The notes under the pieces were generated by a model. The model was not told where the DNA came from. It ran no database searches and saw nothing but the letters and a program-made list of their open reading frames with translations. From the NCBI GenBank assembly GCA_902790415.1, contig CADARU010000002.1:62974-126973 (forward strand): a stretch of DNA of 64,000 nt. The letters are read 5' to 3'. Positions 5,338-26,817 of the stretch are shown piece by piece. The translations under genes and the position numbers were made by a program. This stretch comes from an uncultured Pseudomonadota bacterium. Its GTDB lineage: Bacteria; Pseudomonadota; Alphaproteobacteria; Rs-D84. Positions within the stretch are counted from its first letter, which is position 1, and every line of letters starts with the position of its first letter.

Positions 5338-7110
5338 ATGAATATGTTAGATTCATCTTTTCTGTGTCTAGATATTGGAACCAGTGGTGTTCGTGGCATT
5401 GCACATCGCGTAAAAAATGCACACTTGGATAAAAGCGCATATTATTCTGTTGATAATGACGATATTGTTTTGGCCTTGAAAACGGTTATAGATGAACTGG
5501 AACAACAAATTGGCGAACATTTTGACGATGCATATATAACCGGTGATTTTGGGGCATCTTTCTTTACAATGACCGCGAAAAACACCGTATGGCAATCGGA
5601 ACATAAATTTACGGCACTGGACATACAAAACCAAATATCACAAATAAAACACCCTGATGATTTTTATCCGTTGCACATAATCCCTATGCGTTATGACAGT
5701 CCTAAATTACGCAATATGAGCACACCTGTGGGATACAGCGATAAACAATTATTGGCCACATATTCAGGGTTGTATTTCGAACGCGCCAGATTAGATGAAA
5801 TCATGTCGATTCTGCGTGGCGCGCATATCCAGGCAACATCTTTCTTTGCGCCGCATTTCTTGGAATCCAAGGTTTTTAAATCACGTGATGAAACCGCAAT
5901 GTTCATAGATTTTGGCGCATCGGGAACAACGTTATCACTGTGGACACGGCGCGGACCGGTTTGGTACACAACAATCACAAATGGTGGAAACGATTTAACC
6001 ACCGAAATATCTGACCGCATGAGTATATCATTTGCCGAGGCCGCCCGCATAAAACATTCTGTTGCCGATATGACAACCCAAGAAATGGCACGCTTTATCC
6101 CGGCCGACAGTCAATATGGTTTTTCTGTTGCGGATATAAACGAAATCGTTATTCCGTTTTATACCAATTTGGTTGAGCAAATCAAAAATGAAAGCGCGCC
6201 TTTTTTAGAAAAATACAATCCAACAAAAATTGTGGTCAGTGGTGGCGCAACCAGAATAAACGGCTTGATTGACTTTATTGCCCAAGAATTAAATGTTCCA
6301 ATTATAAATCGTGGCATAGATGCGCCAGCGCGCGCCTTGGCCGCGTATGTTTGGGCTTGTCAAAAACCGCACAGAATTGCATATATTGCACGCATGCAAA
6401 GAATAAAAAAACGCATGAATAAAATATTAAAAATATTCAAACGCAGACACAAAAAGACACAACCGCGTTTTGTTCCCATTATGCCCAGTACCCTGTGTTT
6501 TGATATGAGCGCACCTGAAACATATACAATGTTCAAATCATCTGGTATATCTGCGATACATGTTGATATAATGGACGGCTTTTATGTGGACAGAATCGCC
6601 GGCAGCTTGGATGAATTAAACGCAATTCGTACACAATGGAACGGTCATTTGCATGTACACCTTATGACCGAAGCACCAAACGCATGGGCATCTGGCGCGA
6701 TTGCGAACGGTGCAGATACGGTGATATTGTCAACAAACACTTCCGGTCTGCGTGAAGCAATTCAAACCGTAAAAAAGTCCGGAAAACGTGTTGGAATTGC
6801 GCTAAACCCGGAATCTTCGGTATTAATATTAAAAAGGGTTTTACGCGATTTAGATGAAGTTATGATTATGGCTGTAAATCCTGGTGCGGCCGGTCAAGAA
6901 TTCGACCAACGTGTTTTGCAAAAAATAACTATATTAAACGAAACCAGAAAACGCCATAATTTGAAATATACAATATCTGTTGATGGCGGAATAAATTCCC
7001 AAACCGCCCAGGCCTGTTGGAATGCCGGTGCTGATTTGCTGGTCAGTGGTTCTTATTTATCCGGCGCACCTGATTTTCCATTGGCGGTACAAAGTTTACT
7101 TAAAAAATAA
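5338..7110 (+). CDS. ftsA: FtsA fused in frame to a ribulose-phosphate 3-epimerase-like domain
   Basis: aa 1-~375 are actin-fold FtsA (LDIGTSGVRG, DFGASGTT, GGNDLT, VVSGGATRINGL) ending in a basic amphipathic tail RMNKILKIFKRRHKK. aa 382-590 (from the ATG at 6481) align with Rpe: IMPSTLCFDMSA, IHVDIMDG, VHLM, MAVNPGAAGQEF, SVDGGI, AGADLLVSGS. There is no stop codon between the two parts. Confidence 0.8.
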   Translation: MNMLDSSFLCLDIGTSGVRGIAHRVKNAHLDKSAYYSVDNDDIVLALKTVIDELEQQIGEHFDDAYITGDFGASFFTMTAKNTVWQSEHKFTALDIQNQISQIKHPDDFYPLHIIPMRYDSPKLRNMSTPVGYSDKQLLATYSGLYFERARLDEIMSILRGAHIQATSFFAPHFLESKVFKSRDETAMFIDFGASGTTLSLWTRRGPVWYTTITNGGNDLTTEISDRMSISFAEAARIKHSVADMTTQEMARFIPADSQYGFSVADINEIVIPFYTNLVEQIKNESAPFLEKYNPTKIVVSGGATRINGLIDFIAQELNVPIINRGIDAPARALAAYVWACQKPHRIAYIARMQRIKKRMNKILKIFKRRHKKTQPRFVPIMPSTLCFDMSAPETYTMFKSSGISAIHVDIMDGFYVDRIAGSLDELNAIRTQWNGHLHVHLMTEAPNAWASGAIANGADTVILSTNTSGLREAIQTVKKSGKRVGIALNPESSVLILKRVLRDLDEVMIMAVNPGAAGQEFDQRVLQKITILNETRKRHNLKYTISVDGGINSQTAQACWNAGADLLVSGSYLSGAPDFPLAVQSLLKK

Positions 7111-15568: not shown

Positions 15569-15642
15569 TGGTGCCCTAAGCAAGAATCGGACTTGCGACT
15601 CGTCCTTACCAAGGACGTGTTTTACCACTAGACTATTAGGGC
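15569..15642 (-). tRNA. tRNA-Thr (anticodon GGT)
   Basis: RC reads GCCCTAA-TA-GTCT..AAAC-A-CGTCC-TTGGTAA-GGACG-AGTC-GCAAG-TCCGATT-CTTGC-TTAGGGC-A-CCA. Acceptor, anticodon and T stems are perfect; there is one D-stem mismatch. Confidence 0.9.
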
Positions 15643-26313: not shown

Positions 26314-26407
26314 CAACAAAATCAGACATGATACATTAACGCATTTCTTATGTTGTAAATTTGTTAAGTTGCTCGAACTGCGCTTCGCTTGTTCTCAACT
26401 GCTATTT

Positions 26408-26486
26408 TGTCGGACCCTGGGGTCCTTATCTTTCGCGACTATACCAAAATTAAAACCGGGTCATACCCGGTTTAAATTTTGGTAGC
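26408..26486 (-). repeat. 79-nt repeat copy A (conserved box + terminator + tRNA-like ACCA end)
   Basis: TGTCGGACCCTGGGGTCCTTATCTTTCGCGACTATACCAAAAT..hairpin..TTTTGGTAGC. It parallels copy B at 26671-26749. The two hairpins differ in sequence but both fold. Confidence 0.7.
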
Positions 26487-26574
26487 CGCACAAGGGATTG
26501 CTTCGCCACCTTGCAAAATTTGCCTGACGGCAAACCGGCGTTATTCCGCCTTTTTGCTGCGGTTCGGACCCCTG
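26480..26574 (-). pseudogene. tRNA(CAT) 3'-half pseudo-copy interrupted in the T-loop by a ~63-nt hairpin-rich insert
   Basis: The minus strand reads CAGGGGTCCGAA (12/12 match to the neighbouring tRNA), then the insert CCGCAGCAAAAAGGCGGAATAACGCCGGTTTGCCGTCAGGCAAATTTTGCAAGGTGGCGAAGC, then AATCCCTTGTGCGGCTACCA, followed by a terminator. A further fragment, CGAATCCTTCGCCGCA, is at 26588-26603. Confidence 0.6.
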
Positions 26575-26670
26575 TGCCGGTGTCCAATGCGGCGAAGGAT
26601 TCGCTCGGCATAAATGCCTACGCGGCAACCGTAACGATTTCACTGCGTTATACTTGTGAAATCTACTTGT

Positions 26671-26749
26671 TGTCGGACCAGGGTCCTCATCTTTCGCGAC
26701 TAAACCAAAATAAAAAACGACCACAAGGGTCGTTTGTTATTTTGGTAGC
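26671..26749 (-). repeat. 79-nt repeat copy B (overlaps the terminator and 3' end of the tRNA gene)
   Basis: See copy A. The hairpin is ACGACC-ACAAG-GGTCGT with a T run on the minus strand, immediately 3' of the tRNA ACCA. Confidence 0.7.
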
Positions 26750-26817
26750 GGCGAAGGGATTCGGACCCCTGACCAAAGGATTATGATTCCTCTGCTCTAC
26801 CACTGAGCTACGCCGCC
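26743..26817 (-). tRNA. tRNA with CAT anticodon (elongator Met, or Ile2 if lysidinylated)
   Basis: RC is GGCGGCG-TA-GCTC-AGTGGTA-GAGC-A-GAGGA-ATCATAA-TCCTT-TGGTC-AGGGG-TCCGAAT-CCCTT-CGCCGCT-A-CCA. All stems pair; positions 1:72 form a G:U pair. Confidence 0.88.

Follow-up and report, generated by a model that had tools for sequence, protein, structure and literature searches.

Transfer RNA genes are classic landing sites of genomic islands, and the tRNA fragments that islands leave behind are usually viewed as inert scars. An attachment site that works by folding is found in CTX-type filamentous phages, where two inverted site copies in single-stranded attP refold and mimic the target, which is dif. 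The Islander concept treats displaced tRNA gene fragments (attR/attL) as marks of islands in tRNA genes (PMC4383910), tRNA gene fragments have been described as displaced island remnants (PMC9897764), and CIMEs are decayed ICEs or IMEs that keep attL and attR without the integration and transfer genes (PMC5704250). Our literature search returned these general frameworks (islands, CIMEs and tRNA fragments) and no description of the element reported here.

We examined a 64,000-nucleotide stretch of DNA (the window) from an uncultured Alphaproteobacterium known from metagenomes and MAGs alone. The window is ordinary chromosome (gyrB, lpxC, lpxK, uvrB, topA, pheST and cell-division genes) and contains three tRNA genes identified by ARAGORN and the Rfam tRNA model: Thr (15569-15642, minus strand), Met/CAT (26743-26817, minus strand) and initiator fMet (41247-41323, plus strand). 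An earlier note had described inserts within the T loops of partial tRNA copies beside the last two of these genes, and we located them at 26500-26562 on the minus strand (locus 2) and at the fMet locus, with a third copy at 42359-42407. Each insert proved to be part of a larger unit. With a probability of roughly one half, we consider this unit an integrative mini-element that lacks an integrase and needs its attachment region to fold in the tRNA-sense strand.

Layout of the unit at tRNA-Met and tRNA-fMet

The unit is 164-189 bp long, contains no ORF and lies directly after the CCA end of tRNA genes. Its parts follow the order terminator, R (an inverted copy of the local T arm), loop, D-left, three-way junction and D-right, which runs through CCA, and the intrinsic terminator, R and loop were observed upstream of the insert in every lineage. 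D-left is a direct copy of the T-stem 5' strand with T-loop nt 54-58 and pairs with R to form helix P2. The junction is followed either by an extra hairpin (the fMet type, L032, L055 and L061) or by a short linker, and D-right comprises T-loop nt 59-60, the T-stem 3' strand, the acceptor 3' strand and CCA, forming a 17-40-bp direct repeat of the real tRNA end. The P2 loop starts with G and ends with A, is purine-rich, usually ends in AA or CA, and is 6 nt long except in the fMet copies of the window (8 nt, GAGGATAA); the hexaloops observed were GGCACA, GAACAA, GAAAAA, GAGAAA, GGGAAA, GATAAA and GATGAA.

Of 9-10 D-left positions, 8-10 agreed with the local tRNA in Met and fMet frames; in His frames the ungapped agreement was 6-7 of 9. 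The inverted copy R matched the tRNA at between 7/10 and 15/15 positions. R, D-left and D-right track the type of the adjoining tRNA, while the loop consensus and the junction are constant, and the T loop is split at the same position in all tRNA types. No cloverleaf was detected in any unit by ARAGORN or the Rfam tRNA model, the interrupted copy not being a complete tRNA, and ARAGORN found no tmRNA in the window or the scanned loci. The features of locus 2 are as follows.

26743..26817, minus strand: tRNA-Met gene (anticodon CAT), intact, which serves locus 2 as target or model (ARAGORN; Rfam tRNA model, 66.4 bits)
26715..26735, minus strand: bidirectional intrinsic terminator after tRNA-Met, the centre of a larger palindrome of direct and inverted tRNA 3'-end copies
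26589..26701, minus strand: module A, with an inverted degenerate tRNA 3'-end copy, direct GGTCCGA, a different structured insert and then AATCCTTCGCCGC (compared with L047, L049, L064 and L065)
26573..26588, minus strand: R, the 5'-truncated inverted T-arm copy ATTGGACACC, with hexaloop GGCACA
26563..26572, minus strand: D-left, direct T-stem 5' strand with T-loop nt 54-58/59 (GGGGTCCGAA), paired with R in helix P2 (10/10 identity to the tRNA; 8/10 pairs with R)
26500..26562, minus strand: the insert of the earlier note, a three-way junction and then linker GGCGAAGC (covariance model, 98.9 bits)
26561-26563 with 26508-26510, minus strand: junction helix ACC/GGT
26552-26557 with 26513-26518, minus strand: outer helix of the junction
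26547-26550 with 26537-26540, minus strand: hairpin 1 of the junction
26535-26536, minus strand: GG between the hairpins
26529-26534 with 26519-26524, minus strand: hairpin 2 of the junction
26480..26499, minus strand: D-right, T-loop 3' end, T-stem 3' strand, acceptor 3' strand and CCA (AATCCCTTGTGCGGCTACCA)
26453..26473, minus strand: second bidirectional terminator, which closes the locus 2 unit
26350..26442, minus strand: partial A'-type module (ATAGTCGCGAAAGATAAGGACCCCAGGGTCCGACA, then another insert) without a 3' end (resembles L044 and L064)

The 63-nt insert of locus 2 (CCGCAGCAAAAAGGCGGAATAACGCCGGTTTGCCGTCAGGCAAATTTTGCAAGGTGGCGAAGC) is preceded by GGGGTCCGAA, identical to the T-stem 5' strand and T-loop start of the adjacent tRNA-Met(CAT), and followed by AATCCCTTGTGCGGCTACCA, which supplies the remaining T arm, the acceptor 3' strand and CCA. 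Module A has the same frame as the junction unit (module B) but another structured insert; its copy at locus 2 lacks CCA and terminator, the two modules being joined there through the loss of TACCA and a terminator. An alternative for locus 2, a whole tRNA-like RNA having a short D arm and compensation in its acceptor stem, was ruled out by L047: there the 5' acceptor-like and D-arm-like parts lie in a distinct module A, which has a CCA and a terminator of its own. At the fMet locus two units, F1 and F2, were observed.

41247..41323, plus strand: intact initiator tRNA-fMet (ARAGORN; Rfam tRNA model)
41326..41366, plus strand: terminator with a 19-bp stem, start of unit F1
41380..41410, plus strand: F1 helix P2, made of R GGGTTTGAATCACC, loop GAGGATAA and D-left GGTGGTTCA (9/9 pairs)
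41411..41492, plus strand: F1 insert, made of TTAC, three-way junction (41415-41463), linker and extra hairpin P4 (41472-41492) (covariance model, 52.9 bits)
41493..41512, plus strand: F1 D-right AATTCCATCCCCCGCAACCA, a direct repeat with the tRNA end (repeat family D2)
41521..41542, plus strand: terminator after F1 and start of the GNAT cassette
41657..42172, plus strand: 171-aa GNAT-like ORF, carried as cargo by a cassette whose end is ...CTGCACACACTGCACAACCA (about 42261)
42262..42456, plus strand: unit F2 (52.8 bits), with terminator 42270-42310, R/loop/D-left 42324-42354, insert 42355-42436 (junction 42359-42407) and D-right 42437-42456
42464..42489, plus strand: terminator after F2

The F1 junction reads CAGCAAAAGCCGGACGGAAGTACGGCGGTCAACCTATAGGTTGATTTGC and is flanked by GGTGGTTCA and AATTCCATCCCCCGCAACCA. 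Both units sit in a 300-nt segmental repeat (41318-41617 and 42262-42561) that brackets the GNAT-like ORF, and the core of F2 differs from that of F1 at two positions only, a C to T change in hairpin 1 that gives a G.U pair and a T to G change in a loop. The GNAT cassette of the window was also found directly after tRNA-fMet in GCA_036309105.1. The right end of this cassette (CTGCAC...AACCA) resembles a vestige of the last hairpin and tRNA end of an fMet-type unit.

Covariation of the three-way junction across lineages

A pattern scan of metagenome contigs yielded 13 real loci, and homologs of the flanking PagL and DUF374 proteins led to contigs of more distant species. With covariance models R1 and R2, a kind of search that the earlier note had proposed, cores were recovered in L055, L065, L075/L077 and, as two tandem copies, in L061. 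The core was present in at least five lineages of uncultured Alphaproteobacteria of a gut or rumen clade, adjoining tRNA-fMet, tRNA-Met(CAT) of two sequence types and tRNA-His. A degenerate copy was observed in L033 (52 bits) and a remnant in L067. The earlier note had proposed one structured family linked to tRNA(CAT); its single family and its link to tRNA T arms held, while the restriction to tRNA(CAT) had to be given up, with near-identical cores in tRNA-His-derived frames (L032 and L040). Met-linked and His-linked inserts were ~96% identical over 75-76 nt, and their flanks were unrelated.

The same pattern gave a single match among viral contigs, a chance match inside a coding region. Among GTDB representative genomes it gave 25 matches, none of them with the hairpins, which we regard as chance, and the pattern was probably too strict for diverged members of the family. 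The GTDB representatives of the clade may lack exact matches to the pattern. A BLASTN search of the full unit against plasmid and phage collections returned nothing relevant.

Compared by sequence only, the inserts of the Met and fMet loci showed modest similarity, with a global alignment score of 42 against 27.9 +/- 4.4 in dinucleotide shuffles (z = 3.2; reached by 16 of 2000 shuffles). The homology, which the earlier note had drawn from an alignment by eye, holds, and the decisive evidence for it comes from the relatives. MAFFT placed indels wrongly between the Met and fMet cores, and covariance-model alignments were used instead.

The core folds into a 6-bp outer helix, a single A, a hairpin 1 of 4-6 bp, an invariant GG and a hairpin 2 of 4-6 bp, with the single A present in all cores except the three of the fMet type, which lack that residue. 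The changes GGCG/CGCC to GCCG/CGGC and TTTGCC/GGCAAA to TCAACC/GGTTGA, which the earlier note had read as compensatory, are real, and the pairing GCAAAA/TTTTGC, which it had overlooked, closes the three-way junction. Stems of the additional homologs covaried as well. Among 16 distinct cores (Met-, fMet- and His-linked), standard pairs filled 99.0% of cells and 12 of the 19 pairs had changed on both sides, while slid-register controls gave at most 4 such pairs. The covariation score was 0.417, compared with 0.110 for shuffled alignments, and was reached in none of 500 shuffles.

The alignment of the 16 cores was fitted by a covariance model and leans towards structure; the helix variants are nonetheless legible in the raw sequences. 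They comprise GCAAAA/TTTTGC, ACAAAT/ATTTGT, GCAAAT/ATTTGC and GAAACT/AGTTTC in the outer helix, GGCG/CGCC, GGTG/CACC, GCCG/CGGC, GGCGCG/CGCGCC and GGCGTG/CACGCC in hairpin 1, and TTTGCC/GGCAAA, TCAACC/GGTTGA, TTAACC/GGTTAA, TTGC/GCAA and TTGT/ACAA in hairpin 2, where a further variant, TCCACC/GGTGGA, carries a 14-nt loop. The junction and the pairing of R with D-left are under selection for pairing in the tRNA-sense strand, and the covarying junction together with the R:D pairing implies a folded single strand. Arms of attachment sites that are bound by proteins normally conserve their sequence, so this covariation is not explained by a classical attP.

Strand preference, transcription and gain of the unit as a block

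Computed with RNA parameters, the sense strand had the more stable fold in 12 of the 13 modules, and its advantage over the antisense strand averaged 4.6 kcal/mol. Under DNA parameters, a single strand of the His-linked unit adopted all four helices of the architecture (z = -6.6), and wobble pairs exceeded A.C mismatches in P2 and the extra hairpins. The asymmetry of the strands fits an RNA or one DNA strand and argues against a purely double-stranded protein-binding site. By inspection, hammerhead and other small-ribozyme cores, group II intron domains and IS608-like TTAC targeting were unsupported across the family.

The main rival, a real if minority possibility, is that the unit specifies a small structured RNA of about 110-135 nt, made in the direction of the tRNA by read-through of the leaky tRNA terminator or from an unrecognised promoter. 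Through its inverted T arm and T-arm mimic it would influence tRNA metabolism or the biology of the element, for which the mini-element would be just the vehicle. G.U-compatible states within the covariation and the greater stability of the sense strand suit such an RNA, as do the P2 hexaloops and the conserved junction residues (A and GG), which look like RNA tertiary motifs. An intrinsic terminator closes most units, but several (L035, L047 and L044) lack one downstream, and a competent terminator is situated 5-15 nt upstream, with no sigma-70-like promoter found between that terminator and the unit. Rfam 15 contained no family matching at its gathering threshold and permissive thresholds gave chance matches only, the best sub-threshold match being GcvB (27 bits against a gathering threshold of 42), which spans the two terminators. 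No conserved neighbour gene hints at a target, and the module A palindrome GGACCC(N)GGGTCC is almost loop-less, which makes it unlikely as an RNA hairpin.

Pairs of contigs from the same species showed gain or loss of the unit as a block. L074 and L075 encode an identical DUF374 protein, but immediately behind the CCA of tRNA-fMet L075 has an additional 168 bp, bounded by a 27-bp direct repeat (CAAATCCATTCCCCGCAACCAGTTAAA); the following 400 nt are 99% identical. The segment holds a new terminator, R, loop, D-left, junction and linker. Its D-left reads GGTGG and the local tRNA reads AGTGG, so the unit was not copied locally; the mismatch and the unit's own terminator point to a foreign origin. 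L064 and L065, with an identical PagL protein, differ by a 164-bp unit at tRNA-Met(CAT), where the 22-bp direct repeat has T-loop nt 59 as its first position. In both pairs, DNA missing from one relative is bounded by a directly repeated tRNA 3' part, as at island ends (attR). The flanking repeats were spaced, start to start, by 188 bp in L043, 172 bp in L040, 174 bp twice in tandem in L061 and 189 bp in F1 of the window.

These pairs bear on a further explanation, that the mobile entity is the 60-90-nt insert alone, which would target T-loop nt 58 of tRNA 3'-end copies and survive only in redundant copies. We regard this as unlikely, as both pairs differ by the whole unit and an unoccupied scaffold (R, loop and intact T arm) was absent from all fetched loci; nor were terminal inverted repeats, a clear target-site duplication or a transposase observed. 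It would account well for the similarity of Met and His inserts, which ends exactly at the T-loop split, for the same split position in all tRNA types and for the second insert type (module A) at that position. In L036 and L039 the insert lies in a genuine displaced tRNA 3' half without an inverted T-arm copy, but the L036 layout is derivable by deletion between two copies of GGGGTCCGA. The insert that the earlier note placed in a partial tRNA copy is no intrusion into an older pseudo-tRNA; insert and copy belong, with R, loop and terminator, to a single 164-189-bp unit that is present or absent as a block with a 22-27-bp direct repeat. That the loci are functionless debris of decayed islands, alike through shared ancestry only, is highly improbable: they are crowded with decayed tRNA-end repeats, truncated modules and degenerate copies such as L033 and the L067 remnant, but double compensation at 12/19 pairs (0/500 shuffles) and 99% pairing across lineages with unalignable terminators and flanks, along with conserved loop and junction residues, bear out the earlier note in setting random decay aside.

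The same tRNAs are integration hot spots in relatives. L044 carries a 3.6-kb island that uses the anticodon loop of tRNA-Met(CAT), along with displaced tRNA 3' halves; judged from their translations, its ORFs include a putative tyrosine recombinase of 473 aa with an N-terminal excisionase-like HTH and one resembling DUF3800. An integrase island was observed at tRNA-fMet in L076, and a 79-aa GIY-YIG cassette has a 22-bp repeat of a module A end as its boundary. The L044 integrase was rejected as the enzyme that moves the unit, as its site is the anticodon loop, the junction is missing from its island, and no homolog was found in the window or the other loci.

We favour an integrase-less mini-element on the grounds of the covariation, the gain and loss as a block, the foreign D-left and the hot-spot context, together with the missing promoter, the tRNA-matching flanks around a conserved core and the folding of the sense strand. 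Such an element would be essentially an attachment site with a terminator, comparable to a CIME or a MITE, and would be moved by an integrase encoded elsewhere. Strand exchange would take place in the segment common to all direct repeats, made of the T-loop 3' end, T-stem 3' strand and acceptor strand. In the reading that we prefer, the tRNA-sense strand would fold as DNA during recombination, serving as substrate or architectural element; by analogy with attC and CTX attP, the fold may restore the target's T-arm duplex, and the junction would branch off it at T-loop position 58/59. Repeated integrations, together with single-gene cassettes (GNAT and GIY-YIG), could build the arrays of tRNA-end repeats.

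Several observations weigh against the mini-element. Its mobilising enzyme is hypothetical, as no recombinase, integrase, relaxase or transposase was found in the window or next to most units, and a parent element with the junction beside an integrase was not found. Indels between direct repeats could also come from homologous recombination or tandem duplication, and recombination would work poorly on a double-stranded circle of ~170 bp. The bias of G.T wobbles towards the sense strand suits RNA at least equally, and the ~96% identity of Met and His cores with unrelated flanks is awkward for an element that always moves whole. A more specific and rather doubtful proposal is that the unit is a retargetable, structure-dependent attachment module, in which a hexaloop and junction scaffold would carry exchangeable T-arm copies in both orientations and the recombinase would act in trans. 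The folded single strand would restore the target duplex, with its branch at T-loop position 58/59. If this were true, the module and the GNAT and GIY-YIG cassettes would together resemble an integron whose cassettes are anchored on tRNA genes, and the recombination site would be of a new, folded kind.

Comparison with known systems

We found the unit to match no catalogued RNA family or mobile element; it was recognised neither as a tRNA, a tmRNA or an Rfam member nor as an attC site or a MITE-like element. A fragment that looks like a scar carries a compact three-way junction, with covariation as clear as in a curated RNA family, and tracks three tRNAs. A covariance model is now available for the family, which, should the fold be an RNA, would be an undescribed family of small RNAs linked to tRNAs.

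Direct repeats of the tRNA end and accretion at tRNA genes are shared with genomic islands and CIMEs. As in tRNA-gene islands, the inserted DNA ends in a directly repeated tRNA 3' part, the real tRNA remains intact, arrays build up and presence varies between strains. The unit differs from these islands in its length of 164-189 bp without a gene or integrase, in the split T loop with a covarying junction and in the inverted T-arm copy. It is 10 to 100 times smaller than genomic islands and CIMEs. With CIMEs it shares the lack of integration and transfer genes, the att-like flanking repeats and the tandem accretions with other elements at the tRNA 3' end; however, CIMEs are kilobase-sized remnants of decay, while the unit is compact, is conserved across lineages and has a selected secondary structure.

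Among elements that interrupt a tRNA-like T arm, archaeal T-loop introns of the bulge-helix-bulge type and bacterial group I tRNA introns offer a likeness, but here the interrupted copy is not a complete tRNA, the hosts are bacteria and no intron family was detected. Palindromic elements of the MITE and IS200-IS605 kinds differ in that the unit, by inspection, has no terminal inverted repeats; its boundaries are 17-40-bp tRNA-end repeats and it has no transposase.

Integron attC sites and CALINs resemble the unit in conserving structure over sequence, in forming arrays of small cassettes with one gene or no ORF, in a recombinase that need not adjoin them and in a strand-specific fold, which is plausible here. 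Unlike attC, the unit has no IntI beside the arrays of the window, has a branched junction in a T-arm mimic in place of a bulged hairpin and is anchored on tRNAs. Core sites of the RYYYAAC/GTTRRRY type were not general on inspection, with GTTAAAC/GTTTAAC present only in fMet-type terminators and absent from Met-type and His-type units. As in CTX attP, inverted and direct copies of the target lie in one strand and might refold, a likeness seen here as sequence geometry alone; the unit carries no phage genes, and its target is the tRNA T arm rather than dif. If the fold is a recombination substrate, attC and CTX attP would be joined by another, new class of folded site, and there would be a route by which tiny cassettes could accumulate at tRNA genes in abundant uncultured gut Alphaproteobacteria.

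A second family within the junction-unit frame

Module A, the block fused to the junction unit in the array 3' of tRNA-Met(CAT), follows the same layout as the junction unit, running from an inverted tRNA 3' end through a direct GGGTCCGA and an insert to AATCC(C)TTCGCCGC. The module A insert differs from that of the junction unit, and its hairpin 1 covaries too (GATTTCAC/GTGAAATC, GATTACAC/GTGTAATC, GGTTTCAC/GTGAAACC and GGTTTTGC/GCGAAACC).

Module A in the window and in loci of related bacteria
26589-26701, minus strand: module A, also observed in L047, L049, L064, L065 and L034

All terminators in the tRNA arrays were centred within longer imperfect palindromes (window 26440-26490, 26700-26745 and 41320-41370), which consist of direct and inverted copies of the tRNA 3' end, e.g. 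TACCAAAAT...hairpin...ATTTTGGTA. A tRNA-end repeat was also observed in the related locus L057 (777-845, minus strand), where the T arm, acceptor strand and CCA of tRNA-Met(CAT) are perfectly duplicated in tandem over 33 bp, abutting the tRNA gene with zero intervening sequence. This duplication could be an excision scar or an empty repeat.

Cassettes and an island at tRNA genes

Discrete single-gene cassettes were observed at tRNA genes, as was one larger island in a related contig.

Cassettes, island and inverted repeats
Window 41543-42261; L003 2390-3148; L004: GNAT-like cassette
Window 41571-41622 and 42515-42565: 10-11-bp inverted repeats, AGTTCGAAAG...CTTTTGAACT and AGTTCGAAAGT...ACTTTCGAACT
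L064 1880-2260: GIY-YIG cassette, a 79-aa GIY-YIG domain gene with a long hairpin leader
L044 1000-4470: 3.6-kb island whose integration site is the tRNA-Met(CAT) anticodon loop

The GNAT-like cassette comprises a 171-aa GNAT-like gene, its promoter region and a CTGCACACACTGCACAACCA end. Within GCA_036309105.1 it lies directly 3' of tRNA-fMet without junction units, bounded by CAACCA and by terminators unlike those in the window. The inverted repeats enclose approximately 30 bp and lie beside the promoter of each of two distinct GNAT genes; they may form a shared operator. Insertion of the GIY-YIG cassette in L064 is accompanied by a 22-bp direct repeat (GAATGTGCAATCCCTTCGCCGC), and the cassette is missing from L065, whose encoded PagL protein is the same. 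The L044 island displaces a tRNA 3' half beginning at cttATCATAATCC; judged by eye from translations, its ORFs include a 473-aa product reading as HTH plus tyrosine recombinase and another resembling DUF3800.

Variation at the fMet array and other window features

Elsewhere in the window, a single 590-aa ORF (5338-7110, plus strand) had both FtsA/PilM-like and ribulose-phosphate 3-epimerase Pfam matches, which could reflect either a fusion of genes or the joining of two by the mechanical ORF call. A loose pattern, CAGCAAAA...TTTGC, also matched at 48981-49038; the covariance model gave no hit there, and the match is due to chance. Some 4 kb separate the fMet array from the type IV secretion genes VirB4 and VirB3 (46343-48763, minus strand, and neighbours), a proximity relevant only if single-stranded DNA transfer takes part.

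The second fMet unit (window 42359-42407; L001 10703-10749) was polymorphic among assemblies of one organism, being identical to unit 1 in L001 and differing from it at two structure-neutral positions in the window and L002. These two states suggest a recent duplication or gene conversion.
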